DNA of 64,000 nucleotides from Escherichia coli. Lineage in GTDB: Bacteria > Pseudomonadota > Gammaproteobacteria > Enterobacterales > Enterobacteriaceae. Below, piece by piece: positions 3,697 through 56,065 of this stretch. Position numbers and translations under genes: made by a program. Location: NCBI RefSeq assembly GCF_024223415.1, contig NZ_CP100500.1; one strand, 5' to 3'. Each line of letters opens with the position of its first letter. Positions within the stretch are counted from its first letter, which is position 1. The notes beneath the pieces were generated by a model. It saw nothing but the letters and a program-made list of their open reading frames with translations. It was not told the DNA's origin and did no database searches.

Positions 3697-3715
3697 CATA
3701 AACGAGGGATAACAC

Positions 3716-6700: not shown

Positions 6701-8536
6701 GACAAATCCGGCAGGCTGACGGGTATCTTCAGCCCGGACGGCACATCACAGCGCACCGGCTACGACGAACGCGGGCGGGTGAATGTCACCACTCAGGGCC
6801 GACGGGCCATTGAATACCACTACCCCGACGAACATACCGTCATCCGCTGTATCCTGCCACCGGAAGATGAACGCGACAGACACCCCGATGAATCCCTGCT
6901 GAAAACCACGTACCGCTACAACGCAGCCGGAGAACTGACGGAGGTTATCCTGCCGGGGAATGAGACGCTGACGTTCAGCCGTGATGAGGCAGGACGTGAA
7001 GTGTTCCGGCACAGTAACCGGGGTTTTGCCTGTGAGCAGGGCTGGAATGCAGCCGGCCAGCTTACCAGCCAGCGCGCCGGACTTTTCCCGGAGGAAGCCA
7101 CGTGGGGCGGGCTGGTTCCGTCACTGGTGCGGGAGTACCGTTACGACAGCGCGGGTAATGTGTCAGGCGTCACCAGCCGGGAAGATTACGGACGGGAAAC
7201 ACGGCGGGAATACCGGCTGGACCGGAACGGCCAAGTCACGGCGGTGACAGCCTCAGGCACCGGGCTGGGCTATGGCGAAGGCGATGAGTCCTATGGCTAT
7301 GACAGCTGTGGCTACCTGAAGGCGCAGTCTGCGGGCAGGCACCGGATAAGTGAAGAGACTGACCAGTATGCCGGAGGCCACCGGCTGAAACAGGCCGGAA
7401 ACACGCAGTATGACTATGACGCCGCAGGCCGGATGGTCAGCCGGACAAAACACCGTGACGGCTACCGCCCGGAAACAGAGCGGTTCCGGTGGGACAGCCG
7501 GGACCAGCTGACCGGGTATTGCAGCGCACAGGGTGAGCTGTGGGAATACCGCCACGACGCCAGCGGCAGACGAACAGAGAAACGCTGCGACCGGAAGAAA
7601 ATCCGCTTCACGTATCTGTGGGACGGCGACAGTATTGCGGAAATCCGGGAATACCGCGATGATGAACTGTACAGCGTACGGCACCTGGTGTTTAACGGCT
7701 TTGAGCTGATAAGCCAGCAGTTCAGCCGGGTACGGCAGCCGCACCCGTCCGTGGCTCCGCAGTGGGTGACGCGGACGAATCATGCGGTGAGCGACCTGAC
7801 GGGCCGGCCGCTGATGCTCTTTAACAGTGAAGGTAAAACCGTCTGGCAGCCGGGACAGACCAGCCTGTGGGGGCTGGCACTCAGCCTGCCCGCAGACACA
7901 GACTACCCGGACCCGCGCGGGGAACTGGACCCGGAAGCCGACCCCGGCCTGCTGTATGCGGGACAGTGGCAGGATGCGGAATCCGGGCTGTGCTATAACC
8001 GGTTCCGGTATTACGATCCGGAAACCGGAATGTACCTGGTGAGTGATCCGCTGGGGTTGCAGGGAGGGGAGCAGACTTACCGGTATGTGCCTAATCCTTG
8101 TGGGTATGTTGATCCCTCTGGGTTGGCAATGACTTCGAAAATAGTCAATAAACTACCTTCTGCAAAAGATCTTGCTACAAAAAGGGCCAGTGAGTTATTA
8201 GCAAAGGCAACATCTAATACCCAGCGAAGTAAATTACCAAGGGCAGTTTCAGCTGTTGTTGATAAGAGAACTGGCAAAATATATTATGGAGAAAGTGGCT
8301 GGCCTCACCCAACAGAAATACATCCTACATTACAAAATAATATGCCATCAGCCAGTAAGGAGCGATGGGCAATCGAGAACTGTGCGGAATTTAAAGCTGT
8401 AAATGAAGCTTTGAAGGCAAATGCGAAAATTAGTGATCTTGAAGTTCATACAGTATTGGTAAAAACAGGCGAAGCTTTTCCAATGTGTAAGAATTGTCAA
8501 ATTTCAATATTTGGCGCTGTTGTTACAAGCGGGTGA
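3716..8536 (+). CDS. prePAAR/PAAR-domain Rhs polymorphic toxin (T6SS effector) with deaminase-like C-terminal domain
   Basis: 1606 aa; prePAAR motif AARLGDEIQH, hydrophobic helices, PAAR-like segments (NGKPAARAAV, NNQPAARKGD), long YD-repeat core, DPLGL demarcation motif, then ~140 aa divergent AT-rich tail containing CAE...PMCKNC. Confidence 0.9.
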   Translation: MSEGPGGPQGATAGGTLAMRMLSQQAMVASQMKRAANNKAIAQMLASKKSGPPAARLGDEIQHKSFLGALAGAVLGAIVTIAEGCLIMAACATGPYALVLVPALMYASYKASDYVEEKQNQLESWINSFCDTDGAINTGSENVKINGKPAARAAVTLPSPPPPEAIPEASQGEHSWGDMALDLLESAAEKAAPLAKSWGNAVITLTDSNASFMDRVSAGASLLFPAGPVLMEFATMVGGRGEIKKDVDFPEAGEDTALCDKENKPPRIAQGSSNVFINNQPAARKGDKLECSAAIVEGSPDVFIGGEQVTYLDIQPEFPPWQRMILGGITIASYLLPPAGLLGKLGNLAKLGKLGNLLGKSGKLLGAKLGALLGKTGKSLKSIANKVIRWVTDPVDPVTGAYCDERTDFTLGQTLPLSFTRFHSSVLPLHGLTGVGWSDSWSEYAWVREQGNRVDIISLGATLNFAFDGESDTAVNPYHAQYILRRCDDYLELFDRNALSSRFFYDAFPGMRLRHPVTDDTSDDRLAHSPADRMYMLGGMSDTASNRITFERDSQYRITGVSHTDGIRLKLTYHASGYLKAIHRTDNGIQTLATYEQDARGRLTEADARLDYHLFYEYDAADRIIRWSDNDQTWSRFTYDEQGRCVTVTGAEGYYNATLDYGDGCTTVTDGKGIHRYYYDPDGNILREEAPDGSTTTYEWDEFHHLLARHSPARRVEKFEYNAAQGQLSRYTAADGAEWQYCYDERGLLSNITDPAGQTWTQQCDERGLPVSLVSPQGEETRLAYTPQGLLSGIFRQDERRLGIEYDHHNRPETLTDVMGREHHTEYSGHDLPVKMRGPGGQSVRLQWQQHHKLSGLERAGTGAEGFRYDRHGNLLAYTDGNGVVWTMEYGPFDLPVARTDGEGHRWQYRYDKDTLQLTEVINPQGESYLYILDNCGRVTEERDWGGVVWRYRYDADGLCTARVNGLEETILYGRDAAGRLAEVITPEGKTQYAYDKSGRLTGIFSPDGTSQRTGYDERGRVNVTTQGRRAIEYHYPDEHTVIRCILPPEDERDRHPDESLLKTTYRYNAAGELTEVILPGNETLTFSRDEAGREVFRHSNRGFACEQGWNAAGQLTSQRAGLFPEEATWGGLVPSLVREYRYDSAGNVSGVTSREDYGRETRREYRLDRNGQVTAVTASGTGLGYGEGDESYGYDSCGYLKAQSAGRHRISEETDQYAGGHRLKQAGNTQYDYDAAGRMVSRTKHRDGYRPETERFRWDSRDQLTGYCSAQGELWEYRHDASGRRTEKRCDRKKIRFTYLWDGDSIAEIREYRDDELYSVRHLVFNGFELISQQFSRVRQPHPSVAPQWVTRTNHAVSDLTGRPLMLFNSEGKTVWQPGQTSLWGLALSLPADTDYPDPRGELDPEADPGLLYAGQWQDAESGLCYNRFRYYDPETGMYLVSDPLGLQGGEQTYRYVPNPCGYVDPSGLAMTSKIVNKLPSAKDLATKRASELLAKATSNTQRSKLPRAVSAVVDKRTGKIYYGESGWPHPTEIHPTLQNNMPSASKERWAIENCAEFKAVNEALKANAKISDLEVHTVLVKTGEAFPMCKNCQISIFGAVVTSG

Positions 8537-19790: not shown

Positions 19791-20552
19791 ATGCAATTGA
19801 GCAGCAGTGAACCTTGCGTGGTGATCCTGACCGAAAAAGAGGTAGAGGTAAGCGTCAATAACCATGCTACGTTTACCCTTCCGAAAAACTACCTGGCCGC
19901 CTTCGCGTGCAACAATAACGTCATTGAACTCTCAACGTTAAATCACGTATTAATCACCCACATCAACCGTAACATCATCAACGATTATCTGTTGTTTTTA
20001 AATAAGAACTTAACCTGTGTAAAGCCCTGGTCGCGGCTGGCTACCCCGGTTATCGCTTGTCATAGCCGTACACCGGAAGTGTTCCGGCTAGCCGCCAACC
20101 ACAGCAAGCAGCAACCCAGCAAACCCTGCGAAGCGGAGTTGACGCGCGCATTGCTTTTTACCGTATTGTCTAACTTTCTTGAGCAATCGCGGTTTATTGC
20201 CCTACTGATGTATATCTTACGCAGCAGCGTCCGCGACAGCGTCTGCCGCATTATTCAAAGCGATATTCAGCATTACTGGAATCTGCGAATTGTCGCCAGT
20301 TCGCTATGTTTAAGCCCCAGCCTGCTCAAAAAGAAATTAAAAAACGAAAATACCAGCTATAGCCAGATTGTCACAGAGTGTCGTATGCGTTACGCCGTAC
20401 AGATGTTATTGATGGATAACAAAAATATCACTCAGGTGGCGCAATTATGTGGCTATAGCAGCACGTCGTACTTTATCTCTGTTTTTAAGGCGTTTTACGG
20501 CCTGACACCGTTGAATTATCTCGCCAAACAGCGACAAAAAGTGATGTGGTGA
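19791..20552 (+). CDS. envY: AraC-family porin regulator EnvY
   Basis: 253 aa; C-terminal AraC HTH; position between ybcH and ompT. Confidence 0.85.
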   Translation: MQLSSSEPCVVILTEKEVEVSVNNHATFTLPKNYLAAFACNNNVIELSTLNHVLITHINRNIINDYLLFLNKNLTCVKPWSRLATPVIACHSRTPEVFRLAANHSKQQPSKPCEAELTRALLFTVLSNFLEQSRFIALLMYILRSSVRDSVCRIIQSDIQHYWNLRIVASSLCLSPSLLKKKLKNENTSYSQIVTECRMRYAVQMLLMDNKNITQVAQLCGYSSTSYFISVFKAFYGLTPLNYLAKQRQKVMW

Positions 20553-21065: not shown

Positions 21066-22019
21066 ATGCGGGCGAAACTTCTGGGAATAGTCCTGACAAC
21101 CCCTATTGCGATCAGCTCTTTTGCTTCTACCGAGACTTTATCGTTTACTCCTGACAACATAAATGCGGACATTAGTCTTGGAACTCTGAGCGGAAAAACA
21201 AAAGAGCGTGTTTATCTAGCCGAAGAAGGAGGCCGAAAAGTCAGTCAACTCGACTGGAAATTCAATAACGCTGCAATTATTAAAGGTGCAATTAATTGGG
21301 ATTTGATGCCCCAGATATCTATCGGGGCTGCTGGATGGACAACTCTCGGCAGCCGAGGTGGCAATATGGTCGATCAGGACTGGATGGATTCCAGTAACCC
21401 CGGAACCTGGACGGATGAAAGTAGACACCCTGATACACAACTCAATTATGCCAACGAATTTGATCTGAATATCAAAGGCTGGCTCCTCAACGAACCCAAT
21501 TACCGCCTGGGACTCATGGCTGGATATCAGGAAAGCCGTTATAGCTTTACAGCCAGAGGTGGTTCCTATATCTACAGTTCTGAGGAGGGATTCAGAGATG
21601 ATATCGGCTCCTTCCCGAATGGAGAAAGAGCAATCGGCTACAAACAACGTTTTAAAATGCCCTACATTGGCTTGACTGGAAGTTATCGTTATGAAGATTT
21701 TGAACTCGGTGGCACATTTAAATACAGCGGCTGGGTGGAATCATCTGATAACGATGAACACTATGACCCGGGAAAAAGAATCACTTATCGCAGTAAGGTC
21801 AAAGACCAAAATTACTATTCTGTTGCAGTCAATGCAGGTTATTACGTCACACCTAACGCAAAAGTTTATGTTGAAGGCGCATGGAATCGGGTTACGAATA
21901 AAAAAGGTAATACTTCACTTTATGATCACAATAATAACACTTCAGACTACAGCAAAAATGGAGCAGGTATAGAAAACTATAACTTCATCACTACTGCTGG
22001 TCTTAAGTACACATTTTAA
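21066..22019 (+). CDS. ompT: outer membrane protease OmpT (omptin)
   Basis: 317 aa; signal peptide and sequence recognisable as OmpT throughout. Confidence 0.95.
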   Translation: MRAKLLGIVLTTPIAISSFASTETLSFTPDNINADISLGTLSGKTKERVYLAEEGGRKVSQLDWKFNNAAIIKGAINWDLMPQISIGAAGWTTLGSRGGNMVDQDWMDSSNPGTWTDESRHPDTQLNYANEFDLNIKGWLLNEPNYRLGLMAGYQESRYSFTARGGSYIYSSEEGFRDDIGSFPNGERAIGYKQRFKMPYIGLTGSYRYEDFELGGTFKYSGWVESSDNDEHYDPGKRITYRSKVKDQNYYSVAVNAGYYVTPNAKVYVEGAWNRVTNKKGNTSLYDHNNNTSDYSKNGAGIENYNFITTAGLKYTF

Positions 22020-22268: not shown

Positions 22269-23018
22269 TCAGTCAATTGTTTTGTTTATTCCATCTGTGA
22301 CGCCGATTATTTTCTCAAAATAATGAGATGGCGTGACACCATAATAATCTTTAAATGCACATATGAAATATGAAGTACTGTTATAGCCACATTTCTGGGC
22401 TACGACATTGATAGAATAAGAGTTTGAAGTTATGAGTTTTTTTGCATACCTCATCCTAGTATCTCTCAATATTTCAGTAAATGACGTTCCTTCATCCCTT
22501 AATCTTTTTTTTATTAAACTTTCACTCGTATAAATCAATTCCGCAATATCTTTTAAATGCCATTGCCGCTCAATATTAAAACTGATTATTCCAGTAATTT
22601 TACAGGTAAATGTATTTATATTTGTTAGTATAAATGAATTTACACTTTCGCGTTTTTTGAACATGGCAAGTAAGGATATACATAGTCTTTCTTTTAACCA
22701 AAGGGAGTATGAGTCTGCTATTTTAATCCCTTCAAACAGAGAAAAAACAAGCGATAATGGAGGTTCCTCTTCAGCAATATAGCCATTCTTATCAAGAGTA
22801 AATTTGCCAGGCAGCTCATTATTCACGTCGATAAAAAAGGATAAACATGTTTTCTTATCTATATCAACAATTCTTAGTTTAGAGGGGCATACTGGTAACT
22901 CCCTTCTAATTTTATCGCTTACAATAAACAATGAATTTTTTTTGAACGAGATAACTCTCCTGTTTATAATTAAATCAAATGATTGACAGATGAAAACTAC
23001 GGAGCAAACATAATCCAT
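22269..23018 (-). CDS. appY: AraC-family regulator AppY
   Basis: 249 aa; AT-rich; C-terminal AraC HTH; K-12 synteny next to ompT. Confidence 0.9.
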
Positions 23019-23880: not shown

Positions 23881-24549
23881 ATGGTGAAATTAATGAAAAA
23901 AAACACAGATGATGGGGCTAAAATTTACACACCACTTACCCTAAAGCTTTATGACTGGTGGGTTTTGGGAGTATCAAATCGGCTTGCATGGGGATCTCCT
24001 ACAAAGGAACACCTTCTTCCACACTTTCTGGAACATTTAGGTAACAACCATCTGGATATTGGTGTTGGAACTGGGTTTTACCTTACTCACGTACCTGAGA
24101 GTAGTCTGATATCTTTAATGGATTTGAACGAAGCTAGCCTGAACGCGGCATCTACAAGGGCTGGGGAATCAAAAATTAAACATAAAATTAACCATGATGT
24201 TTTTGAACCTTGTCCCGCGGCGTTACATGGTCAATTTGATTCCATTTCCATGTTTTACCTTCTTCACTGCCTGCCTGGAAATATATCTACAAAAAGCTGT
24301 GTAATACGCAATGCGGCGCAGGCCTTAACTGACGATGGAACTCTATACGGAGCCACAATTCTTGGCGATGGAGTTGTGCACAATAGCTTCGGTCAAAAAC
24401 TGATGCGCATTTACAATCAGAAAGGCATCTTTTCAAACACAAAAGATTCCGAAGAAGGCTTAACACATATACTCTCAGAGCATTTCGAGAATGTTAAAAC
24501 CAAGGTTCAAGGTACTGTAGTAATGTTTTCCGCTTCAGGGAAAAAATAG
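23881..24549 (+). CDS. SAM-dependent methyltransferase (YbcY-like)
   Basis: 222 aa; motif I DIGVGTGFY; K-12 DLP12 has ybcY at the equivalent position. Confidence 0.7.
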   Translation: MVKLMKKNTDDGAKIYTPLTLKLYDWWVLGVSNRLAWGSPTKEHLLPHFLEHLGNNHLDIGVGTGFYLTHVPESSLISLMDLNEASLNAASTRAGESKIKHKINHDVFEPCPAALHGQFDSISMFYLLHCLPGNISTKSCVIRNAAQALTDDGTLYGATILGDGVVHNSFGQKLMRIYNQKGIFSNTKDSEEGLTHILSEHFENVKTKVQGTVVMFSASGKK

Positions 24550-24603: not shown

Positions 24604-25188
24604 TTACTCCCTGACAGGGTTCGTAGGCCACTCAATATCAGGTGCAGTTGATGTATCAACACGGTTCAGCAACACCCGATACTTTTTCCAGGCTTCCAGC
24701 AATGAGGTTTCTTCCTCCGTTGCGATTTCCAGATCTACAGCATCCTGAAGTGGCGCAATATGCTCACTGGCTACCTGCATCAGGCTGTTTTTTGTTTCTT
24801 CCGCCTCCCGGATCCGGAACAGTTTTTCTGCTTCTGCATCTTTCACCCAGGCTGTGCCGTTCCACTTCTGAAACTCCCCTTCCGGCGATAACCAGGTAAC
24901 ATTTTCCGGTAACGGACCGAGTTCAGAAATAAATAACTCGTCCCCTGACGCTACGTCATAAACCGTTTTACCCCGATGGTCTTCAACGAGATGCCACGAT
25001 GCCTCATCACTGTTGAAAACAGCCACAAAGCCAGCAGGAATATCTGGTGGTGCAATATCGGTACTGTTTGCTGGCAGACCTGTATGAGGCGGAATATATG
25101 CGTCACCTTCACCAATAAATTTATTAGTTCCGGCCAGCAGATTATAAATTTTTATGGTCCGTGCTTGTTCACTCATTCTGAATGCCAT
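24604..25188 (-). CDS. tail fibre assembly protein (Tfa)
   Basis: 194 aa; immediately downstream of side tail fibre gene; conserved Tfa C-terminus ([16 protein letters not shown]). Confidence 0.85.
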
Positions 25189-27944
25189 TATGCAAGCCTC
25201 ACAATATAGTTAAATGCGATGTTTTTGACGGTGTTTTCCGCGTTACCAGCAGCGTTAACGGTGATGGTGTGTCCATGTGAGCCAATCGCAACGGAGTGCG
25301 TATGAGCACCAATACCGACAGTATGTGCGTGTGCACCTGCAGATGCTGCGGTGCCGGACAGTGAGTGGCTATGATTACCATCTGTACTGGTATTAGCTAA
25401 CGCCCCCGTAGACATACCTACTGAGCCTTGTACACCCCAAGTATTTTGACCTGAGCTTGTATAACCATATTGATAAGTATCTTTAAAAACACTGGGGTTA
25501 AATCGACGGCCATCTCTATGGCTGTGATTACCAGCTGCATTCGTGCTGCCACTTAAACTATGGGTATGCGCACCAGTGTTATTCGTAGATTTAGTGCCGT
25601 AATCAAACGACGATGTGGTTTTCGTCCCCAAATCCGTACTGGATGCGCTGGCGCTGTGGGTGTGCGATTTAATGCCGTCCTGTTCCTGAGACAATACGGC
25701 ACGACCACTGGCGGGCTTGCCCTTAATCGTCCAGCCACGCATATCAGGGATCACGCCTGACGGATAAGCCGCTGCAAGTTTCGGGTATGCAGATTTGTCA
25801 AAAGCCTGCCCCTGCATCAGGGCATAGCCAGACGGAACGGTATCTGATGGCCACGGGATTGGTGCGCCAGGCGGATAAAACTGCTCTGATGGCGTATAGA
25901 GTGAATAAACTGTACCGTCCGTTAACCCTTCCGGCTTATTAGCAGAATATGCTGGTGACGTATGAATCGTCACGCTGGCATTACTGGTATAATCCCATTG
26001 AATATTTACACCAGTCGCATAATTTCCGATTGCAACGTAAATATCGTAAGTATCACCAGATGTATTAACCCAGGCAAAATTTGTAAACCCTGTCAATGTG
26101 CGCTGCCATAAAGCACCAGTAATCCCCTTCGGATTACCATTACCTGCACGTAAAACAAGTTCAGATATACCTGCCTGTTGAGGTGACCCCACGTTAAATC
26201 CAGCGCCACCAATCAACGTAATTGAAACAACAGAACTCGCCTGTGGCATGGTTACCGTTGCTAATTTGAACCAACCAGCACCACCGCTGAATGACATTGT
26301 TGTTGAGTTAAGCGTACCAATATCTTTCGGCGTCAGTGTTATATCCGCTGAAAGCGCCTTACCATTCACCTTACGGGCAGAAGGTACCCGACCATTCGCA
26401 TTGTCATTAGCTGCTTTCACTGCTTTCGGTGTCGCAGCAAGCGTTTCAGATGTGCTGTTGGTTGCACTACTGAGCTGGACAATTCCTTTTTGTGCTGTCG
26501 TAGCGTCCTGTGCGGTGTATTTCCCGTTAGCCAGGTCATACGCGGCCTTAACGGCTTTTGGCGTTGCCGCCTGTGACTCGGAAGTGCTGTTAGTCGCACT
26601 GCTGAGCTGAACTATCCCTTTCTGTCCTGTCGTTGCATCCTGTGCGGTGTATTTCCCGTTAGCCAGGTCATACGCGGCCTTAACGGCTTTTGGCGTTGCC
26701 GCCTGTGACTCGGAAGTGCTGTTGGTCGCACTGCTGAGCTGTACTATCCCCTTTTTCGTCGTGCTCGCATCCTCAAGCGCCACGGCGGATGCAATATCCT
26801 CTGCCCGTTTTGCTGCTGTCTCGGCGCGCGTTGCCGCGGATTCCGCCGTACTTTTGCTCTGTGCTGCCGCTGCCGCACTGCCAGCAGCCTCTGTCGCCTT
26901 CGTGGATGCCGTCGTGGCGCTGCCCCTCGCTGCTGACGCCTGTCTGGTCGCCTCATCTTTTGAAGCAGACGCAGATGATGCCGATGACGCCGCCGAACTG
27001 GCGGACGATGCGGCAGCCGTTTTTGAGGATTCTGCGCTGGTTTCCGACGCTTTCGCGTTCGTTTCGGATGTCTTCGCTGCGGAAGCAGACCTCGCTGCTG
27101 CGCTGGCCTGTTCAGTGGCTTCGCCAGCCTTCGTTGTGGCTGTTGAAGCGGATGATGCGGCGCTTTCTGCCGATTTTCCGGCGGCGGTGGCACTGACTGC
27201 TGCCTCCTCTGCCTTAATGGACGCCTCACGGGCCGATGATGCAGCTGCTGTCTCAGAGTCTGCCGCAGCTGAGGCGCTCTGTTCCGCTGCCGTTTCAGAA
27301 GACTTAGCATTCGTCTCGGACGTTTTCGCCGCAGCGGCACTGGTAGCTGCCGCGCTTTTTGAGGACTCTGCAGCAGCAGCACTTTTCGATGCTTCACTGG
27401 CCTTTGTTGATGCCGTTCCTGCGCTGGAAGATGCTGACTGAGCCGACGACGCGGCCTGTCCGGCTGACGTGCTGGCTGCGCGTGCTGAGCCTGCAGCATC
27501 AGTCGTATGGGTTGCCGCCTCACGGGCTGATGTGCTGGCATCGCTGGCTGACTTCTTCGCGGCTGCCGTGTTCTGTGCCACCGCGGACGCGTTACGCGCC
27601 ACCTCTTCCACCATCAGTTCAAAACGGCGCAGTGCCTCAGGACGGGCATCATCCTCCGTCATGGCACCGAGAAAATCATTCAGCGTACCGGGTCGGGAAT
27701 CTTCATACACGGTGATGGTCCCGGCATGTGACGGCGGGAACCCCTCCACCAACAGAATAACGCTGTACTGCCCGTACTCAACGTCCATGCTGTAACGCCC
27801 GGCTTCATCCGGATTTTCTGAGGCCAGCGTGTTCACCACCACCGTGGTGCTGTTACGTTTTGCTTTCAGCTGGATTGTGCAGTTCTGTACCGGTTTTCCT
27901 GTGCCGTCTTTCAGTACACCTGAAATCTTTACTGCCATATTCAC
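25188..27944 (-). CDS. side tail fibre protein (Stf-like)
   Basis: 918 aa; lambda Stf-like N-terminus, long Ala/Ser/Thr-rich region, three 44-aa tail-fibre repeats ([41 protein letters not shown]), His-rich C-terminal tip. Confidence 0.9.
26377..26772 (-). repeat. three tandem ~132-bp coding repeats inside the tail fibre gene
   Basis: Units beginning ~26377, 26509 and 26641 are near-identical at DNA level. Confidence 0.85.
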
Positions 27945-46594: not shown

Positions 46595-47088
46595 TACTCC
46601 TCCTGCTGTAATTCCTCCTCATCATCCGCACCTGCTTCAGTCACCCGCAGGGCTATCTGATCGCGCAGATCATCAATAATGGACTGAACACGGCTCACAG
46701 CGGCAGGCTGCAGACCGCAGTCACGTTCAAGAATATCCGGTAATGTCTCCAGCACCTGCACGACCGCTTTTGCCCAGATGGCAAACTCCCGTCTGACATC
46801 ACTGGCCGGAATGAGTTGTGCCGTTTCCTGTTCGAACTTAAGACGCTCACGTTCAGACTGATACCAGGCTTTGCGCTCATGCGCGTCCATTTCGCCTTCT
46901 GCAACCGGCGGTGGTAATGCCAGAAATGCCGACACAATATCAACCACCCGATAAAGCTTGAGGTTGCTTTCATGCCCCCCTGCAACGGGTAGATTTTGCA
47001 GCCTTGCCGCAGCAGTCTGGCGATGTACACCTGACAGTGCCGCCAGTTGACTGATATTAAGCGTCAGATTTTTTAACTCTCGATCCAT
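46594..47088 (-). CDS. terminase small subunit (Nu1-like)
   Basis: 164 aa; N-terminal HTH (LNISQLAALSGVHRQTAAARL); stop overlaps terminase large start. Confidence 0.85.
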   Translation of the reverse strand: MDRELKNLTLNISQLAALSGVHRQTAAARLQNLPVAGGHESNLKLYRVVDIVSAFLALPPPVAEGEMDAHERKAWYQSERERLKFEQETAQLIPASDVRREFAIWAKAVVQVLETLPDILERDCGLQPAAVSRVQSIIDDLRDQIALRVTEAGADDEEELQQEE

Positions 47089-47409
47089 ACCCGCTCCAGA
47101 ATGTTTTAAACATGCATCTTGCGAACAACTTTAGGCAAACGGTGTTAGTGATGAACAAAAAACAATCAAAATCGACACTACAAAAATAAAACCACTGTAA
47201 TATCAATCTATTACAGTAGTGGTGATGACGAATGAAATTTCAAAAACTAGCCTTTTTCCGCGATGCTCCCGCCCCGTGCCAGCCTCCCCCATTAGGAGGA
47301 CCCACATTTCTTATCAGGTATTCAAAACGCCCACCTCAATGAGGTCGGATCAGATTGATGTGAGAGAACAAATCATGCAAACTATCTAAGCTCATGGTAA
47401 GAAGTAGCA

Positions 47410-47835
47410 GTGACAAGAGGATATTTCCTGATGGAGCAGGCAAATATTTTTCAAGAGATATTCGAACACGTTAGAAGTAATTTATACTTCCCATGGTTTT
47501 ACTCCGAATTAAAACGCCATAATATTGCGCATTATATTTATTATCTGGCTACTGATAATATAAGACTAATTACTCATGATGATAATGTTTTATTAGTTCG
47601 AGGCAGTAGAGGACTTGTGAAAGTTAGCACATCAAAAAAACCAGAGTTAATTAAAGAAGCAGCCAGGAATCTTATATCAGGTAAATCTACATTTCACCAA
47701 TATCGTCTCACTTTAGCAAAAGCAGGTGTTTATCGCTGGATTACAGATATAGATAAAAACATACGGTTTTACTATTCGTTTGATCACGATCTTTTGTACA
47801 TGGAAGATGTTGAAAATAACAGACCATTAATATAG
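47410..47835 (+). CDS. hypothetical protein (moron; possibly YbcV/DUF1398-like, unverified)
   Basis: 141 aa on the strand opposite to late genes, in an AT-rich island between terminase and lysis genes. Confidence 0.5.
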   Translation: MTRGYFLMEQANIFQEIFEHVRSNLYFPWFYSELKRHNIAHYIYYLATDNIRLITHDDNVLLVRGSRGLVKVSTSKKPELIKEAARNLISGKSTFHQYRLTLAKAGVYRWITDIDKNIRFYYSFDHDLLYMEDVENNRPLI

Positions 47836-48152
47836 GAATTAATTAAATCAGCAGTCCGGTTTCATACACCTCTGTACCGGACTAGCTGCATGAAGAGCAA
47901 ACCCGCGAAGCATAAAAGCGGTAAACCCAGGTGTGTATCGTTTTTTATTATTCCCACACACTCGTGCTCCCCGTCGGACTACACTCATGGTTAACGAAGG
48001 AATACAGCGACGATACGGCGCACAGAAATAAATCAGGCATCTATTGACCTCATAAAAACGATGCATTGCCTTGCTATGAGTAATGGTGTCAATTAAAGCT
48101 TTGGCTCTCTCTAGCCCCGGCGAATCTTCAGCGGATTATCCTTGGCCGGTTT

Positions 48153-48617
48153 TTATCTGAGGCATTGCTCTCGAATGTATAGCTGTGCCCCTTCAAGTTG
48201 TTTTTGCATTATTATCAGTCGCTCTCTGAGGGTGAAATAATCCCGTTCAGCGGTGTCTGCCAGTCGGGGGGCGGCTGCATTACCCACGCCGGAGGCGGCG
48301 GTGGCTTCACGCACGGTCTGACAGACTGCTCTGATGCGCAACCGACGACGACCAGCGGCAATATCATCACGAAGAGCATCATTTTCAGCTTTCGCATCAG
48401 CTAATTCCTTCAGGTATTTTGCATCGAGTGCAGTAATATCACGCTGGCGCTGCTGCATGTCAGTAATGGCTGCATTCGCCTGGCTGAGTTTTGTCTTCGC
48501 ATCATCTCTCTGCTCTTTGTAGATGATGGCATTATCGCGGTAATGGGCTATTGCCAGCAACAGCGCACCACTGACCACCAGTAGAATAACAATCACCGCA
48601 TACAGAACCCGTTTCAT
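48153..48617 (-). CDS. i-spanin Rz
   Basis: Start at internal ATG (MKRVLYAVIVILLVV, N-terminal TM); coiled-coil periplasmic domain; track ORF to 48668. Confidence 0.85.
   Translation of the reverse strand: MKRVLYAVIVILLVVSGALLLAIAHYRDNAIIYKEQRDDAKTKLSQANAAITDMQQRQRDITALDAKYLKELADAKAENDALRDDIAAGRRRLRIRAVCQTVREATAASGVGNAAAPRLADTAERDYFTLRERLIIMQKQLEGAQLYIREQCLR
48215..48397 (-). CDS. o-spanin Rz1 (lipoprotein embedded in Rz, +1 frame)
   Basis: 60 aa; lipobox LVVVGC; proline-rich; wholly inside Rz. Confidence 0.85.
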   Translation of the reverse strand: MRKLKMMLFVMILPLVVVGCASEQSVRPCVKPPPPPAWVMQPPPDWQTPLNGIISPSESD

Positions 48618-48618
48618 T

Positions 48619-48837
48619 TCACCACCAGCGTATCTGAGCAATGAAATAACCGGAGGCCATAATCGCAAACACCAGCCAGAAAAGAATGAATTTCCAGGTG
48701 GATAATTTTTCAGCCATAGTTCGAATCTCCCGAATCAGTTTGCTAAAATCAAACACACTTTCTCCTTTGGCTTTTCCGGAGTCAGGAAACACAAAAAACC
48801 CGACTGTTCGCGCAATCGGGGGTCTGCTCTTATTCAC
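48619..48837 (-). CDS. small hypothetical membrane protein between endolysin and Rz
   Basis: ORF up to 72 aa, possibly 32 aa from internal Met; hydrophobic C-terminal helix; stop overlaps Rz start region. Confidence 0.3.
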   Translation of the reverse strand: MNKSRPPIARTVGFFVFPDSGKAKGESVFDFSKLIREIRTMAEKLSTWKFILFWLVFAIMASGYFIAQIRWW

Positions 48838-48914
48838 TACTTCAATTCATTTATGACTAATATCGTGTTATCCACCCGCGTTGGCCAACGTCATTTTTCA
48901 GAGAAATATTCTGC

Positions 48915-49448
48915 TTATCTGTCGATCCCCCAGCACACTAACGCGCTCTCCTGATCACGACGAATAACCTGACCGTAACAGTTATTTGAACGAATGCGGC
49001 AATCACGCCCCCTGTCCTTAATCCACCAGCGAATCGCCTCGCATGCACCTTTACGATCACCAGCATTCAGCCGTTTATAAAACGTCGACGGAAAACACTT
49101 ACCGGGGCCAATGTTATAGGGACAAAATGACGCGATACCCGCTTTTTGTGGTTCGGTCAGTGGTACTTTAATATTGCGCTCCACCCATGCCAGAGCCTTA
49201 TCACGCTCAATAGCGTTAACCTGGTCGCATTTTTCCTTCGACAGTTTCATATTGGGAAAAACGGGTTTTCCATCCACCACTGTGGCACCCCGACAGATGG
49301 TCCATATGCCGGAACCATCACGGTATGCCATTGTGTGGTTACCTTCTTTTTCGTCCAGAAACTGGTCAAGTATCTGAGGAGCAGATGCACCAGCACCAAT
49401 CAGCGCCAGAACGGCAGCCGACAGGCCGTATTTGACTTTTACGTTCAT
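48915..49448 (-). CDS. SAR endolysin (T4-lysozyme-type, R21-like)
   Basis: 177 aa; N-terminal signal-anchor-release segment; catalytic E-x8-D-x5-T (EGNHTMAYRDGSGIWT). Confidence 0.9.
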   Translation of the reverse strand: MNVKVKYGLSAAVLALIGAGASAPQILDQFLDEKEGNHTMAYRDGSGIWTICRGATVVDGKPVFPNMKLSKEKCDQVNAIERDKALAWVERNIKVPLTEPQKAGIASFCPYNIGPGKCFPSTFYKRLNAGDRKGACEAIRWWIKDRGRDCRIRSNNCYGQVIRRDQESALVCWGIDR

Positions 49449-49553
49449 GGATATTTATCAGGATTTATCGATTTCTGAACCCAGGATATGTTTATCTGTC
49501 CCAACCTGTTGAATCAGGCGGAGAACAGGTAAATACAATCAAGAGGATTATTT

Positions 49554-49826
49554 ATGGACAATAACACCATTTCTCTTCAGGAGTTGCTCGACTGCATTTC
49601 CAGGCTTCGGGATGATGTTAATGCCCTTACTGTCGCATTTTCATATCTGGCATTGTCAATTCCCAGGGAACAAATGCAACCAACACTGGCATCGCTCCAG
49701 CTTGAATCACACAGCCCAAAATGGTCCCAGGAACAACAAAATTCCTTCAAGTGGCTGGTGGCATTACTGGAAGATAAATATGCTGTTAAAATTAAAATTC
49801 CGGCGGAGTCTTCAGAGAACCAGTAA
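49554..49826 (+). CDS. hypothetical protein, opposite strand within lysis cassette
   Basis: 90 aa; RBS aagagga upstream; protein-like composition while the antisense frame is low-complexity. Confidence 0.45.
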   Translation: MDNNTISLQELLDCISRLRDDVNALTVAFSYLALSIPREQMQPTLASLQLESHSPKWSQEQQNSFKWLVALLEDKYAVKIKIPAESSENQ

Positions 49827-50136
49827 TTTTTCCCGGTAGCTTTACTTTGTAAGTTATCCACACATTCTGCGCCTCTAAAATTATGGGGTGCTTTTCTGGC
49901 GACAGCTCATTCCCTTCACATAACCCGGCAGCAACATCCAGGAAGACCTGTCTGATTCTCCTTCTGGCTGCTGCCTCATAAAACTCCAGTGCAGCACCTT
50001 CAACACGATCCATAGTGATATCAAGGTCAAAAATCTCACCGTCAAAGCGTTCTTTGTCTTGTAAGGCTAAAGTTACCGCAACTTTATTCTCAAAATTACG
50101 GACTCCTTTCACAACCAGTTCGTAGACTTGAGTCAT
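49792..50136 (-). CDS. hypothetical protein between holin and endolysin (possibly DUF1327/YdfR-like, unverified)
   Basis: 114 aa; starts 5 nt after holin stop on the late-gene strand. Confidence 0.55.
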   Translation of the reverse strand: MTQVYELVVKGVRNFENKVAVTLALQDKERFDGEIFDLDITMDRVEGAALEFYEAAARRRIRQVFLDVAAGLCEGNELSPEKHPIILEAQNVWITYKVKLPGKITGSLKTPPEF

Positions 50137-50140
50137 TGGA

Positions 50141-50356
50141 TTACTCTCCTCTCTCAGCCTTACGCCTGTCTTCTTTAATCTTGAAATAAAGGTTAGTCAG
50201 ATACGTCAGCATGCCAAATACCAGACTACCCAATACACCTATTGCCGCCCACTGTGAGGGCGTGACTTTATCGAGCAACTGTAAAAACCAGTAGCCAGCA
50301 CTGCCTGCAGAGGTGCCGTAGGCGATGCCCGTTGTTAACTTATCCATGGATTTCAT
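50141..50356 (-). CDS. pinholin (phage 21 S-like), dual-start motif
   Basis: Internal start [26 protein letters not shown]... closely matches S21; two Met codons 3 codons apart; track ORF to 50440. Confidence 0.85.
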
Positions 50357-50539
50357 AGCCTCACCTCCGCAGATAACGGATGGTGTACACGGTTTGGTTC
50401 GAAGAAGGAAAAAAGTTACATTAACGTAAGGCCCGAACATCTATTCAAAAAGAAAAACGCCAGCAATTATTCTGGCGTAGCTGAAAGCATCATACAATTA
50501 TCAAATACGAAAATTACAAAATCATTAAAACGCATCACG

Positions 50540-51280
50540 TTACATCATGTCTTTTTCTAAAAAAAATCTTGATGAATATTGATGGGGAGGAACACCAAAA
50601 TATCTTCTGAAAACACTTACAAAATATGACGTGTTTTCATAACCGCATATCTCAGCAACTTTTCCAACAGAATATAAATTGTAGCTTAATAACCTTTCCG
50701 CCATCACCATTCGCTCTTCAAGAATTAACTTACTAAATGATAAGCCTTCGTGCTTTAATTTTCTTTTTAACAGGCTTTCACTCAGATACAGTCTTGAAGA
50801 TATATCACAAAGTCTCCATGCTGCAGATATATCCGTGTGAATAATAGCCTTAACTTTACTTCCTAAACTATTAAGACATCCAAATAAAAAACTTTGCACT
50901 GTTTTCTCTGAAGATAAGATAGCAAGACATGCAAGTGATATTTGATTTCTAACAAAATCCACAGTTCTGCCATCAAAATTCAAGCATGCAATCAAATTCT
51001 TTAACAATGAAAAATCTTCACATTCCACCATCAAGTATGCCGGATAAAACCTTCTTACAGAAAAAGGTGAGAGTGTGTTGTTTTTAAAGAAATCATTAAC
51101 TGTTTTCTCTTCAACATCTACGATCATTACATGATCTATATTTGATGAAAAAAAATCTTTTAAATTGTAATCAATGAGAACAGCACTTCCTTTTTTAAAC
51201 AAAATATCTTCTTTACCAATTCGGACATCAAACGAGTTCAACACCAAAATGATAGAACATATGTATGGCATATTATCCAC
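50540..51280 (-). CDS. AraC-family transcriptional regulator (prophage cargo)
   Basis: 246 aa; AT-rich; C-terminal AraC HTH (GYENTSYFVSVFRRYFGVPPHQY). Confidence 0.8.
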   Translation of the reverse strand: MDNMPYICSIILVLNSFDVRIGKEDILFKKGSAVLIDYNLKDFFSSNIDHVMIVDVEEKTVNDFFKNNTLSPFSVRRFYPAYLMVECEDFSLLKNLIACLNFDGRTVDFVRNQISLACLAILSSEKTVQSFLFGCLNSLGSKVKAIIHTDISAAWRLCDISSRLYLSESLLKRKLKHEGLSFSKLILEERMVMAERLLSYNLYSVGKVAEICGYENTSYFVSVFRRYFGVPPHQYSSRFFLEKDMM

Positions 51281-51622
51281 CTGATATCATTGGGGTTACA
51301 CCAGGTAAGTATAGGTGGAAAATCAATATTCGCCAGTTCAACAATAAGGAAAATCTCATTGCATCACAAGTATAAAATTATGTATTTAACTCACAAAGAC
51401 AAATTATTAAACCAATCTGTTATATTATATATAGCTGCGTGGAATCATAATATTATATATTTTGACTGGCATGTTTACCAACTTTAAGTTGCATCTCAAT
51501 GGTTTCTTCAGCGTAAACAGAGTTTTTATACAAACTGACACTCTGGGTATCATAGTGTAGTTTTTACGATTGTAAATATCCTGCATGCAGGAACTCATCC
51601 TTTTGGATGATATCGCATACAA

Positions 51623-52582
51623 TTAATTTACCATCAGTCTTAGAGCCAGTTCGTCCGGATAGGGATCGAAGTAATTCTGTGTAAGCAAGTAGTCATTAGG
51701 ATACTCACCCAGATAATGCTTCAGCAGAGTCAACGGCGCAAGAAGAGGTAATGTGCCAGAACGATAGTTAAGTATAACCTCGCTCAACTCTTTACGCTGG
51801 CGTGTACTTAAGTAGTTACTAAAATACCCCTGTATATGCATCAGCACATTCGTGTGATTTTTACGTGATGCAGGTTTTCTGAGAATCGCCATCAGCTTAT
51901 CACGATACACCTCAAAGTATGATTCAAGGTCCGCCCACTCGTGTATTGCAGCCACAAATGGTCCCATATCTTTATAGCCTGCCTGACTATGCGCCAACAA
52001 CTGAAGCTTATAACGACTATGAAAAGCTAATAACTCTCTTCTTGATAATTTCTCCTTGTAAAGGTGATTGAGCTCATGCAAAGCAAAAACTCTTTCAACA
52101 AAATTCTCACGAAGCACTGGATCATGTAATCGCCCATCCTCTTCAACCGGTAGCCAGGAAAACTTTTCCATCAAAGTGCTCGTAAATAGTCCCACTCCAT
52201 CTTTACGACCTCGATTACCATTTTCATCATAGACACGCACGCGCTCCATGCCACAGCTGGGAGATTTAGCACAAACCACAAACCCCGATACATCCTTTAA
52301 TTTGTCCATATAAGAACGACTAAACTCTGTCATTCTCTCTGTCACATCCTCATTCTGGTCGTGGCTGAAACACATCCGTATATTTCCTTGCGTCGAGCGC
52401 ACAAGACGTAGAGCAGGACGCGGAACTGGCAGCCCTATAGCCATTTCCGGACATACTGGTCTGAATGTTACCCATTCCACTAATTTGTCCATTAAAAAGT
52501 CAGCTCTTTTGTGACCACCATCAAAACGAACAGCAGAACCGGCCAAACAACCGCTGATTCCAATCACAGGTTTTTTTATCAT
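51623..52582 (-). CDS. DUF523 (TudS-like) / DUF1722 fusion protein
   Basis: 319 aa; N-terminal Cys-containing DUF523-like region (GISGCLAG...CPEM...SPSCG), C-terminal YbgA-like region. Confidence 0.6.
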   Translation of the reverse strand: MIKKPVIGISGCLAGSAVRFDGGHKRADFLMDKLVEWVTFRPVCPEMAIGLPVPRPALRLVRSTQGNIRMCFSHDQNEDVTERMTEFSRSYMDKLKDVSGFVVCAKSPSCGMERVRVYDENGNRGRKDGVGLFTSTLMEKFSWLPVEEDGRLHDPVLRENFVERVFALHELNHLYKEKLSRRELLAFHSRYKLQLLAHSQAGYKDMGPFVAAIHEWADLESYFEVYRDKLMAILRKPASRKNHTNVLMHIQGYFSNYLSTRQRKELSEVILNYRSGTLPLLAPLTLLKHYLGEYPNDYLLTQNYFDPYPDELALRLMVN

Positions 52583-52774
52583 ATCCTCCCCCTTGACTAA
52601 TTCATTAACACATAAACTGTGTAGTGCACGGAATAAATTGCCTTTCTGGCGTCATCACTGACAATTTTTCTGTTATGGACTATTCCTAATATAGTATGAA
52701 AGTTCTTTAAGTGATCGGTCGTAATCATCTATCTTTCATACTTACTCTCAACTATCAAAAGTACAGGATTTATT

Positions 52775-53299
52775 ATGAAGTTATGGCCTGTGTTGACTGG
52801 CATTGCACTCTCTTTCACTCTTATAGCATGTAAGGCCCCGACACCACCTAAAGGTGTGCAGCCGATTACAAATTTTGACGCCAACCGCTACCTCGGAAAA
52901 TGGTATGAAATAGCTCGCCTCGAGAACCGGTTCGAACGTGGTCTGGAACAGGTCAGCGCTACTTATGGAAAACGGAACGACGGAGGGATTCGTGTACTTA
53001 ACCGTGGATACGATCCAACGAAAAATAAATGGAGCGAGAGCGAAGGTAAAGCATACTTTACTGGAGATACTAAAACTGCAGCGTTGAAGGTTTCGTTTTT
53101 TGGCCCCTTCTATGGTGGCTATAATGTAATCAAACTGGATGATGAGTATAAGTATGCTCTTGTCAGTGGTCCGAACAGAGAATACCTATGGATTCTGGCA
53201 AGGACCCCAACTATTCCAGATAAAGTAAAAGCAGACTATGTGCGAACCGCTCAAAAGTTGGGATTCAATGTCAATGAATTATTATGGGTTAAACAATAA
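52775..53299 (+). CDS. bacterial lipocalin (Blc-like outer membrane lipoprotein)
   Basis: 174 aa; lipobox LIAC; strong resemblance to E. coli Blc (NFDANRYLGKWYEIARLENRFERGLE, GKAYFTG, KVSFFGPFYGGYNVI, YLWILARTP); opposite strand to late genes. Confidence 0.85.
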   Translation: MKLWPVLTGIALSFTLIACKAPTPPKGVQPITNFDANRYLGKWYEIARLENRFERGLEQVSATYGKRNDGGIRVLNRGYDPTKNKWSESEGKAYFTGDTKTAALKVSFFGPFYGGYNVIKLDDEYKYALVSGPNREYLWILARTPTIPDKVKADYVRTAQKLGFNVNELLWVKQ

Positions 53300-53327
53300 A
53301 ATCCCTACCCGAAATGATACTTATTAG

Positions 53328-53354
53328 AAAAAAACCAGCCTTTGGGGAGGCTGG
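53328..53354 (-). terminator. putative intrinsic terminator downstream of Q (tR'-like candidate)
   Basis: 6-bp GC stem (ccagcc/ggctgg) with 8-nt loop, followed on the minus strand by a 7-nt U run. Confidence 0.4.
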
Positions 53355-53454
53355 CTAAATCAGAAAACAAGCTGTTATATGATAATAACTACGTTGCGAT
53401 TCCAACATTTAAAATGTTAGACTAATGACAATCAGACAGCAACTTTTCCTTTAA

Positions 53455-53847
53455 TTATTTCGGACAATCAGCATCCATCTCCAATCGGAGATCCAACACC
53501 ATCAGCATGCCCTCCACTACGCCCTCAGCTTTCTGGAGCATCCTGCCAACCCAACAATCAGATCGCCCATGCTTACGTGCAAGCGCCATAAAAGTCATGC
53601 CGCCGACATAATAGTCCACCAATAAATCATGCAAATCGCTGTTGTTTTTTTTCAGGCGAGCCATACATCCACAAATGATCATCGCGTCATCGTCACAACA
53701 TTGCGGGCGAGATTTTACTTTTGAAGGAATTAATCCCTTAAAACCGGCGGCAATGGACGACCAGGTCACATCTTCATGATTATTAGCCGCCCACGCTCCC
53801 CAACGCTCAAGAACCATCTGAATATCACGCATCAACTTTCTCCACAA
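53455..53847 (-). CDS. late-gene antiterminator Q
   Basis: 130 aa; Cys-rich zinc-binding region; position upstream of lysis genes. Confidence 0.75.
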
Positions 53848-53849
53848 AA

Positions 53850-54845
53850 TCAGGCCAGCACACCAATCGCCAGCGCACGATCGATAAAACGAAATATCAG
53901 CTCCAGCTGGGAGCCATACTTCTCTTCGAATGCCACATTATCCGCATGCAGCTCGTCGTGATGCTTTCTGCACAAAGGCAACACAAAGAGGTCATGCGCT
54001 TTTGTCCCCATTCCACCCTGACCGTGGCCTATCAGGTGGTGGGGATCATCAGCAGGTTTTCCACAACATGCGCACGGCTGCGTCTTAACCCATCGCGTGT
54101 ACTTTTCATTAACCCAGCGGCGACGTTTTGGGCGTAACATAAAAGAGTCCGGCGACTCCGGATCCACTTTCAGCGCCAACACCTTTTTCGCTTTATCCTG
54201 GATGATGCTGGTGGCAGGAACCGAAGGCACCAGGTCACTTTCCCGGGTGACAGACGGCACAACAGGCTTCGGTAATCTCAGTGCCTTACGGGCTGCACTT
54301 TCCGGTAAGGCATCCGCCAGATCATTACGAATCAGCCACCAGCACAGTTCCGGCATTGTCACAACGTGACTGTCATCAAAACCGAGATCCCGACGCACAA
54401 CAGACAACACCCAGCGGGCACAGTTATCCGTTGCCATTGATTCCAGCCGTTCCGTGAACTGATCGCGCAGTTGGTTATCGCAGTGCCAGCACAGACGGAT
54501 TGCGCCCGGCGCGTGTCGCATTGTGGTCATGTTCTCGCTGTGCCAGTCGGAATGAGGCCACTGGCAGCCTTTTTCACGAAGTAACCAGCTTTCAAGACAT
54601 TCCACGCCACCAGCACGACGGATCACTGCCTCATTGCGGAACACGGCCCGAACGGCAGGATCATCCGCCAGCGGTTGTGATGCAGCCGGAACGGCACCAC
54701 TGGCAAAAGATGAATAACGTTCCGGCTCAGGCTCCAGCAGGACACGCCCCTGCATAAACAGGGGCATCAGCTCTGAACCTGGCCTGAACAATACGATCCC
54801 CATACGCGGGGCAATTTCAGGGGTCAGTAGTGCTCTCACGGTCAC
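53850..54845 (-). CDS. DUF968-like nin-region protein with C-terminal zinc/HNH-like motifs
   Basis: 331 aa; C-terminal [14 protein letters not shown]...CRKHHDELH. Confidence 0.6.
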
Positions 54846-54846
54846 C

Positions 54847-55656
54847 TCAATGAACGGTATCGAGCAGCTTTAACAGCTCAGGGAATCGGGATTCGAAGAA
54901 ATGCGGCTGCGTCTCGCGCGGATTTGCGGGACTGGTGATGTTCTTGCCGAACATGCAGCCTTTCGCTGTCAGCGACCAGAATTTTTTGATGTTGTTAATC
55001 GCGGTACGGCTGTATCGTTCGCGTTGTTCAACGATCCCCAGCTTCGCCATCTGGTGATATGCCTGATTAGCCGTCAGGCGGATACCATACTGCTTCAGCA
55101 GTGCACTCAGCGACAGCGTCGGGCGGCTTGAGCCATCAGGCGCGTCAGCAGGTGCATCAATGGCATAGCGCGGTGCCAGATTCGGTAAGCCAACAGCCTC
55201 CTGGAGTTTCTGACAGGCCCCAAGCACAGATGAGTTAGACAGATTTAACTCCCGGCGCATAAAGTCCAGCAGAATCACGCCAGCCTGCATCTTGTCAGCA
55301 GCCTGTCCGGATAACTTTTCCGGCGCGCTGGTTACCATATCGAAAGTACGGATCACCTTCAGATGGAATGACGGGCTGATCCACATTGCATAGGCATACA
55401 CCAGTTCCTTACAGACATACGTTCCCCGTTCATTTCCCCCATGAATCACGCTCACCGGGTCAACACCCAAATTCTGGGTGTTGGTTAATTCATGAACAAG
55501 CTCAACAGTTTGTTGGCTGGAAAGAAACTTTCCTGGCTCCTTGGTTCTGGCATTTGCACCAGATGCTACTGCTGCGCGATGCAGATCGTTCAGGCTGTAA
55601 CGCCCATAAGCATCACGACGAACTTCAATACCATCAATGACCATCAGATTATTCAT
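54847..55656 (-). CDS. KilA-N domain protein
   Basis: 269 aa; N-terminal KilA-N-like region (IDGIEVRRDAYGRYSLNDLHRA). Confidence 0.6.
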   Translation of the reverse strand: MNNLMVIDGIEVRRDAYGRYSLNDLHRAAVASGANARTKEPGKFLSSQQTVELVHELTNTQNLGVDPVSVIHGGNERGTYVCKELVYAYAMWISPSFHLKVIRTFDMVTSAPEKLSGQAADKMQAGVILLDFMRRELNLSNSSVLGACQKLQEAVGLPNLAPRYAIDAPADAPDGSSRPTLSLSALLKQYGIRLTANQAYHQMAKLGIVEQRERYSRTAINNIKKFWSLTAKGCMFGKNITSPANPRETQPHFFESRFPELLKLLDTVH

Positions 55657-55675
55657 ACTTCGTTTCTCCTCTTAA

Positions 55676-56065
55676 TCAGGCAGCTGCACCCGCCGTTTTC
55701 TCGTACTTACTGATAGTGATCTCGACCTTCCCTTCCGGGATAACCGGTCCCCACTCCACCAGCATTCTTTTCACCTGACTGTCGTCTTCCCACACCCCCG
55801 CGTGGGTCAGGGCGTCAAACAGCGCCTTGTTATAGTTGTCCAGATCGCGGATCCTGTTATCCGGAGGAAACAACACGATCTCCACTGAAGCAGGTGCCGA
55901 CGTTGGTTTCGGCAGACGACGTAACTGCTCAACTATTGCTGCGCACGCCGCGCTCTGGAATTTTCGCCCCGCCGCGCTTATCAGGCTCTTACCTGCAAAC
56001 GCCCCTTTGTTAGGGTGTCGCCAGTAAGTGTTCACGCTGGGCGGGAAAGGCAGGATAAGCTTCAT
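55676..56065 (-). CDS. rusA: Holliday junction resolvase RusA
   Basis: 129 aa; RusA signature (PPSVNTYWRH...RDLDNYNKALFDALTHAGVWEDDSQV). Confidence 0.9.
   Translation of the reverse strand: MKLILPFPPSVNTYWRHPNKGAFAGKSLISAAGRKFQSAACAAIVEQLRRLPKPTSAPASVEIVLFPPDNRIRDLDNYNKALFDALTHAGVWEDDSQVKRMLVEWGPVIPEGKVEITISKYEKTAGAAA

Follow-up and report, generated by a model that had tools for sequence, protein, structure and literature searches.

The window is a stretch of 64,000 nucleotides of Escherichia coli DNA that covers the DLP12 (argU-site) region in reversed orientation and contains a full-length lambdoid prophage. From left to right we observed nfrB, nfrA, ybcH, envY, ompT, appY, the tail-fibre genes, J, the tail, head and terminase genes, the lysis genes, Q and the early region. 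The succession of ompT, then envY, then ybcH, nfrA and nfrB corresponds to the reversed right end of DLP12 in K-12, and ompT (21066-22019, plus strand) is 100% identical to its K-12 counterpart. A first-pass annotation of this DNA had placed the AraC-family gene appY at the tail end of the prophage and envY just outside it, and both genes were found in those positions. The AraC-family paralogue appY lies at the tail-fibre end (22269-23018, minus strand) and is 99.6% identical to K-12 AppY, and envY, also of the AraC family, lies just beyond the prophage past ompT (19791-20552, plus strand) and is 99.6% identical to that of K-12.

A further AraC-like gene is located between the antiterminator gene Q and the holin gene. 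The late genes are all on the minus strand. Read along the direction of transcription, the elements are Q, a hairpin, a blc-like gene (on the opposite strand), a ybgA-like gene, a leader, the AraC-like gene, another hairpin, the holin gene essD, ydfR and the lysozyme gene. The antiterminator Q (53455-53832, minus strand) is QuuD-like, with a match to Pfam Phage_antitermQ (E=2.5e-51) and 83% identity to K-12 QuuD. Past Q, the terminator scan and folding detected a terminator-like hairpin at 53333-53356 (minus strand, -14.9 kcal/mol) which, by analogy with lambda, sits in a tR'-like position. The holin EssD (50141-50356, minus strand; 71 aa) is encoded by the first lysis gene, matches Pfam Phage_holin_2_1 and is 94% identical to K-12 EssD. 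Since all genes in that stretch are on the minus strand, the AraC-like gene lies upstream of the holin gene. The first-pass annotation was right that the regulator gene is prophage-borne and beside the lysis cassette, but its wording "downstream of the holin" holds in plus-strand coordinates only and not by transcription. The same slot between Q and the holin gene is occupied by nmpC in K-12 DLP12 and by an AraC-like gene together with stx2 in a Stx2k phage, and Sakai Sp6 and Sp10 carry different cargo between Q and the holin gene. No known RNA family was found in an Rfam search of positions 47000-56000.

The minus-strand reading frame runs without interruption at 50540-51280, with 246 codons counted from a GTG. 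At the local base composition, 246 stop-free codons would arise by chance with a probability of about 5e-10 per start, and therefore about 7e-5 such stretches are expected in the six frames of 64 kb. Translation almost certainly begins at the ATG at 51271 and not at the GTG at 51280, and this gives a gene for an AraC/XylS-family regulator of 243 aa at 50540-51271 (minus strand), as defined by the reading frame, Pfam, PHROG 1450, the AlphaFold2 model and the intact alleles. A Shine-Dalgarno sequence, AGGTGG (51277-51282, minus strand), can be read 5 nt before this ATG, and the GTG at 51280 falls within it. The RefSeq annotation places the start of the regulator at the same ATG and all homologues open with M-x-x-x-C-S. 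The Shine-Dalgarno region, CAGGTGGAT, was observed to be unchanged across the five aligned loci. The G+C content of the gene is 31.6% (GC3 26%), while the adjoining genes have 43-48%, with Q and the holin gene at 47-48% and the ybgA-like and blc-like genes at 43-44%. The low-GC AraC-type gene claimed from the first reading is thus borne out by this reading frame, by its composition (31.6% versus 50.7% for the window) and by the helix-turn-helix matches in Pfam.

Matches to Pfam HTH_18 (54.9 bits, cut-off 33.6) and HTH_AraC (44.1 bits, cut-off 26.6) both cover residues 161-237, and the C-terminal region of about 100 residues with two helix-turn-helix motifs by which AraC/XylS proteins are recognized is present. 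The best full-length NCBIfam model was YdeO (NF007407) with 127 bits, below its cut-off of 348 bits, and the GadX model gave 86 bits against a cut-off of 500; no NCBIfam equivalog cut-off was reached. In full-length BLASTP comparisons the regulator was found to be 53.6% identical to Sakai ECs_0287, 34% to GadW, 32% to YdeO, 31.5% to AppY and 30% to EnvY, and its full-length identity to a 237-aa AraC protein from O157:H7 prophages is 40%. The BLASTP alignments within this clade span residues 4-239 with E values of 1e-37 to 1e-87; GadX and YbcM align with the regulator over the DNA-binding domain only. On these alignments, the regulator belongs to the GadW/YdeO/AppY/PatE/Psr clade over its whole length, and it shares with the other members the N-terminal domain (about 135 aa) and the opening M-x-x-x-C-S-V-I. 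It also matches PHROG 1450 over its full length (E=1e-106), a family labelled "unknown function". Only 10 clusters were found at E values of 1e-30 or below among 1.84 billion cluster representatives, and the full-length family is therefore narrow. The exact protein sequence occurs on 358 public contigs, where the databases give it generic names only.

A confident AlphaFold2 model built with 40 homologues (pLDDT 89.5, pTM 0.82) shows an N-terminal domain rich in beta structure and, after it, a DNA-binding domain of seven helices. The best full-length Foldseek matches to this model were CsvR, Rns and ToxT (E values of 1e-10 to 1e-7). These are fatty-acid-binding virulence regulators which share only 16-20% sequence identity with the regulator, and the domain orientation differs (rmsd of about 15 A, TM 0.44). 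The best domain match was the DNA-binding domain of GadX (3mkl), with a TM score of 0.9-0.94 and an rmsd of 1.0-1.3 A.

The leader between the ybgA-like and AraC-like genes (51272-51622, minus strand) has 351 bp and a G+C content of 32.5%. Its mean column identity among the alleles is 74%, with indels, over the five aligned loci. Two leader mini-ORFs, at 51290-51487 (plus strand) and 51425-51622 (minus strand), were ruled out as genes because of these indels and this low identity. A candidate sigma-70 promoter of the AraC-like gene, TTTACA-16 nt-TATGAT (51549-51576, minus strand), matches the consensus at 10 of 12 positions. Both of its hexamers are identical in all five loci and its spacer changes at two positions only, whereas the surrounding leader diverges. 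A second and weaker candidate, TTGGTA-18 nt-TATAAT (51452-51481, minus strand; 10 of 12 positions), falls where the leader varies and is rich in indels. Overall, the promoter scan showed no excess, with 13 sites against 10.5 in shuffled sequence. Between the AraC-like stop codon and the holin gene, the terminator scan predicted an intrinsic terminator hairpin, ACGCCAG-N8-CTGGCGT with a T-run (50447-50478, minus strand), with a free energy of -12.1 kcal/mol. The stem and the T-run of this hairpin are invariant in the five loci despite the divergence of the flanks. No terminator was predicted by the scan between the ybgA-like and AraC-like genes.

The ybgA-like gene (51623-52582, minus strand) encodes 319 aa with a DUF523/2-thiouracil desulfurase domain and DUF1722, as assigned by Pfam, and belongs to PHROG 3275, which is labelled "unknown function"; its dN/dS of 0.10-0.24 indicates purifying selection. 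The blc-like gene (52775-53299, plus strand) encodes an outer-membrane lipocalin of 174 aa (NCBIfam Blc with 316 bits, cut-off 267; Pfam Lipocalin_2) and is antisense to the Q-dependent late transcript. The arrangement Q, blc-like gene on the other strand, ybgA-like gene, AraC-like gene and holin gene was observed to be identical in 8 of 8 contexts, which are the window and seven related records, including GDSC2BY4G, IdasGreatGrand, 1H12, a Logan contig, the Qin-like prophage of SC516 and CE0007a. The ybgA-blc pair was found in 1150 of 5426 genomes and the AraC-like gene in 1033, and therefore the three genes travel together. The 192-bp intergenic region between the blc-like and ybgA-like genes (52583-52774) is 96% conserved although the dS of the flanking coding sequence is up to 0.2-0.3, which suggests that it may hold constrained divergent promoters or operator sites. 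The blc gene is listed as a common lambda moron, present in more than half of the infant-gut lambdoid phages of one study (Mathieu et al. 2020, PMC6969025); the main text of that study makes no mention of the regulator.

The regulator gene was found in 1033 of 5426 complete E. coli genomes (about 19%), and at least 80% of its length is present in 992 of these 1033. Some copies are truncated or have IS1 inserted alongside. The carrier isolates come from diverse human, animal and environmental sources. Isolated phages with the gene are IdasGreatGrand (98% identical) and Jouyvirus 1H12, and the gene was also found in the related Lambda_ev and Lambda_2 records (83%). In GDSC2BY4G the sequence is 100% identical over 1.25 kb, but the prophage is at another chromosomal site (near yagU and pao). 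The cassette in that record has neither appY nor envY nearby, and the record and the window are not collinear.

Three alleles were distinguished which differ at 17-27% of residues, and all of them are open. Their pairwise dN/dS is 0.21-0.25, and the values by domain are 0.11-0.13 for the DNA-binding domain and 0.30-0.46 for the N-terminal domain. The DNA-binding domain is thus under tighter selection than the N-terminal domain. The first-pass annotation had named pseudogene status as a point on which its proposal could fail; since the three alleles are intact at these dN/dS values, a pseudogene is rejected. Between the window and SC516, dS is 0.33 for the AraC-like gene and 0.045-0.05 for the ybgA-like and blc-like genes, and therefore the AraC-like gene has been exchanged independently of its two partners. 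These values point to exchange of the AraC-like segment among the alleles by recombination. Inside the AraC-like gene, dS also differs, with 0.12 in the N-terminal half and 0.73 in the DNA-binding half. The mosaic structure of 50540-51622, as seen between the window and both SC516 and 1H12, implies recombination breakpoints inside and beside the AraC-like gene.

The closest characterized relative of the regulator is PatE. Sakai ECs_0287, a 247-aa AraC gene that ends prophage Sp1, is the probable PatE (z0321 of EHEC O157:H7) and the 237-aa O157:H7 prophage protein is probably PsrA/PsrB. Both identifications are based on context (location in prophages, presence in EHEC serotypes and a copy number of two in O157 genomes). 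The Psr locus tags given in reviews (z1789 in OI-50 for psrA and z2104 in OI-57) led to no AraC-like gene. Searches with tblastn of Sakai Sp6, of Sakai Sp10 (first 43 kb) and of EDL933 CP-933N detected nothing AraC-like, and the probable Psr family was reached through the homologue in the Stx2k phage. A further record, OR845495.1 (2.3 kb, "Escherichia phage ECO95 1-6-1", O157 host), was rejected as a Psr gene and is an adiY/adiC-like bacterial fragment. It is about 81% identical to the adiY-adiC region of E. coli and is probably DNA of another enterobacterium and not of a phage.

The regulator and PatE are 53.6% identical over their full length and 71% identical in the DNA-binding domain, where the first recognition helix (SESLLKRKLK) is the same. 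Both are prophage-borne, of low G+C (35% in PatE) and about 245 aa long. The N-terminal domains, however, are only 40% identical and the second recognition helix varies at several positions. The PatE-type genes (those of Sp1, mEp332 and ev099, for example) follow the tail-fibre genes close to the attachment site and have no ybgA or blc partners, whereas the regulator gene lies between Q and the holin gene. The high identity and shared position expected of a PatE orthologue were therefore not observed, with 53.6% identity and a different location.

PsrA/PsrB belong to the same clade (40% identical) and use the same slot, past the antiterminator and before the holin gene. The probable PsrA/B gene (237 aa) was observed at 7001-7714 in O157:H7 H6437 (our record L020) and at 3501-4214 in the Stx2k phage (our record L017), where it stands directly past the antiterminator and ahead of tRNA genes, stx2 or nanS-type esterase genes and the holin gene. 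The slot therefore hosts two subgroups of this regulator clade. The 40% identity is far from that within the Psr pair, as PsrA and PsrB are reported to be 90% identical to each other, and the regulator does not group with them by close identity. The Psr-like genes were listed in O157, O26, O103, O111 and O145 strains and other isolates, usually in two copies, and their neighbours are tRNA genes, TerB, nanS-type esterase genes or stx2 in place of the ybgA-like and blc-like genes. Of 5426 complete E. coli genomes, 726 carry the probable PsrA/B gene, and the median copy number is two. Because identity, position (PatE) or partner genes (Psr) differ, the regulator is a paralogue of PatE and of Psr and an orthologue of neither.

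Other members of the clade are more distant. AppY shares the same prophage, is likewise a stand-alone prophage AraC regulator of low G+C (31.5%) and is 31.5% identical to the regulator, but it is a distant paralogue which stands alone at the tail-fibre end. The homology to GadW (34%) and YdeO (32%) extends over the full length, and the DNA-binding domain of GadX is 40% identical and superposes on 3mkl. GadW, GadX and YdeO differ in that they are chromosomal genes and that the regulator stays below their NCBIfam cut-offs.

Reviews report that PatE activates gadE, gadBC and hdeAB, that PsrB activates gadE and hdeAB, that PsrA/B repress type III secretion via GadE and YhiF and act on hdeA, and that AppY regulates the AR2 acid-resistance genes (PMC10877973, PMC10057817). 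The earlier suggestion that prophage AraC regulators rewire host regulons agrees with these reports for AppY, PatE and the probable Psr, which concern acid resistance and type III secretion. One of these reviews states that further Psr homologues occur in EHEC, EPEC and NMEC pangenomes. The regulator group may already have been noted in passing, since NMEC homologues of Psr are cited there and we found that NMEC strain CE10 carries the regulator gene at 99% identity. The gene is already annotated in generic terms in RefSeq and its subgroup is without a name. Our literature searches for the cassette (prophage lipocalin, YbgA and AraC) and for a lambdoid moron AraC gene by the holin returned no relevant report, and no study of the regulator protein was found.

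A moron in the sense of Juhala and Hendrix is an extra gene between neighbours that are adjacent in related phages, with foreign composition and with its own promoter and terminator, which is expressed from the repressed prophage. The cargo of the Q-to-holin slot was observed to vary among related phages, and the G+C of the regulator gene is 31.6% compared with 47-48% in Q and the holin gene, as is characteristic of such genes. With a probability of roughly 0.55, and by analogy with its clade, we favour the reading that the gene is a functional moron whose product is an activator expressed in the lysogen that works on host promoters, probably those of the gadE/hdeAB acid-resistance network. 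In the lysogen, the AraC-like gene would be transcribed from its own candidate promoter in the leader. This leader is AT-rich, a type of sequence that H-NS typically silences. Additional read-through from the ybgA-like gene is possible since no terminator is predicted between the two genes. Transcription would then stop at the hairpin just before the holin gene, so that the lysis genes would stay off, and after induction the Q-modified polymerase would be expected to read across the entire cassette.

The protein itself would act in trans on AT-rich host promoters. Its likeliest targets are gadE and hdeAB of glutamate-dependent acid resistance, because PatE, PsrB, PsrA/B and AppY, the nearest characterized relatives, are reported to act in that network. 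The target specificity could differ from that of PatE, judging from the identities of 54% overall and 40% in the N-terminal domain. To our knowledge, there is no reliable binding-site consensus for PatE and Psr.

The regulator might instead serve the cassette in which it lies, by controlling the promoters of the divergent ybgA-like and blc-like genes (and perhaps its own promoter) in answer to a small ligand such as a fatty acid. We consider this rather unlikely, despite several observations which fit it. The three genes occur together in 8 of 8 contexts and in similar numbers of genomes (1150 versus 1033), and a linkage that is near to one-to-one fits a local role equally well as a role at host targets. 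The blc/ybgA intergenic region is conserved at 96% though flanking dS reaches 0.2-0.3, the scan predicts no terminator to separate the AraC-like gene from the ybgA-like gene, and the closest full-length folds, those of Rns, CsvR and ToxT, include fatty-acid-bound structures, with Blc being a lipocalin. However, the AraC-like gene differs in composition from its partners (31.6% against 43-44% G+C) and has a separate history (dS of 0.33 against 0.045-0.05 between the window and SC516), and PatE, AppY and the Psr-like genes stand alone elsewhere and are reported to act on distant host genes. It is more doubtful still that the protein is a lipid-responsive sensor of the Rns/ToxT type in a three-gene module with the blc-like lipocalin and the ybgA-like enzyme of the thiouracil-desulfurase type. 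Such a module, present in about a fifth of E. coli, would tie a fatty-acid or lysophospholipid signal of the gut to envelope or nucleobase metabolism, or to host acid-stress regulons.

A role in the phage life cycle, in which the protein would adjust the expression of late or lysis genes, or the timing of lysis, for the phage and not the host, appears improbable. The gene is just upstream of the holin gene within the Q-dependent late unit, from which the protein should be made late in infection, and it is retained in isolated phages. However, the regulator is absent from lambdoid phages that share this Q and these lysis genes, such as K-12 DLP12 (with nmpC), Sakai Sp6 and Sp10, so the cycle does not require it. 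Its foreign composition and the terminator predicted for it are typical of morons, and no member of the clade is reported to control phage genes in the reviews (PMC10877973, PMC10057817). It seems very improbable that the gene has no function at present and persists as a decaying or H-NS-silenced remnant. It is very AT-rich, some copies are truncated or have IS1 alongside, and its database names are generic only. Against this, at least 80% of the gene is kept in 992 of 1033 genomes and alleles up to 27% apart are all open, with a dN/dS of 0.21-0.25 overall and 0.11-0.13 in the DNA-binding domain. Conservation also extends to the Shine-Dalgarno sequence, the terminator hairpin and the hexamers of the candidate promoter.

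The phage-borne regulators of this clade, AppY, PatE and PsrA/B, are reported to plug into the acid-resistance and virulence circuitry of the host. The subgroup described here is about as common as the EHEC-associated one (1033 versus 726 of 5426 genomes), and E. coli strains from infant faeces have yielded phages that carry it. If the regulator does drive gadE/hdeAB, it would represent a mobile and allelically variable switch for survival in stomach acid that is widespread in non-EHEC E. coli. Such an outcome would extend a known theme and not open a new one.

Several other reading frames of the prophage were noted. A 141-aa ORF with 32.9% G+C (47410-47835, plus strand) is flanked by the Rz-like and terminase genes, to which it runs opposite, and its position appears to match that of a DUF1398/YbcV-type gene annotated in a close relative. 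If so, this ORF would be another moron-like insertion in the prophage. A 90-aa ORF (49554-49826, plus strand) is antisense to the 3' end of ydfR and overlaps it. It matches PHROG 2411 over its full length (E=6e-53), a family of "unknown function", has no Pfam match and, in RefSeq relatives, is called a "hypothetical protein". An intact 222-aa ORF (23881-24549, plus strand) lies between appY and the tail-fibre assembly gene at the position of the K-12 pseudogene ybcY, and its product looks methyltransferase-like as judged by eye from the translation. In addition, the tail-fibre gene (25188-27944, minus strand) has a long repetitive centre rich in Ala, Ser and Thr with near-identical repeats, and in GDSC2BY4G the annotation treats the corresponding gene as a pseudogene that contains an internal stop.
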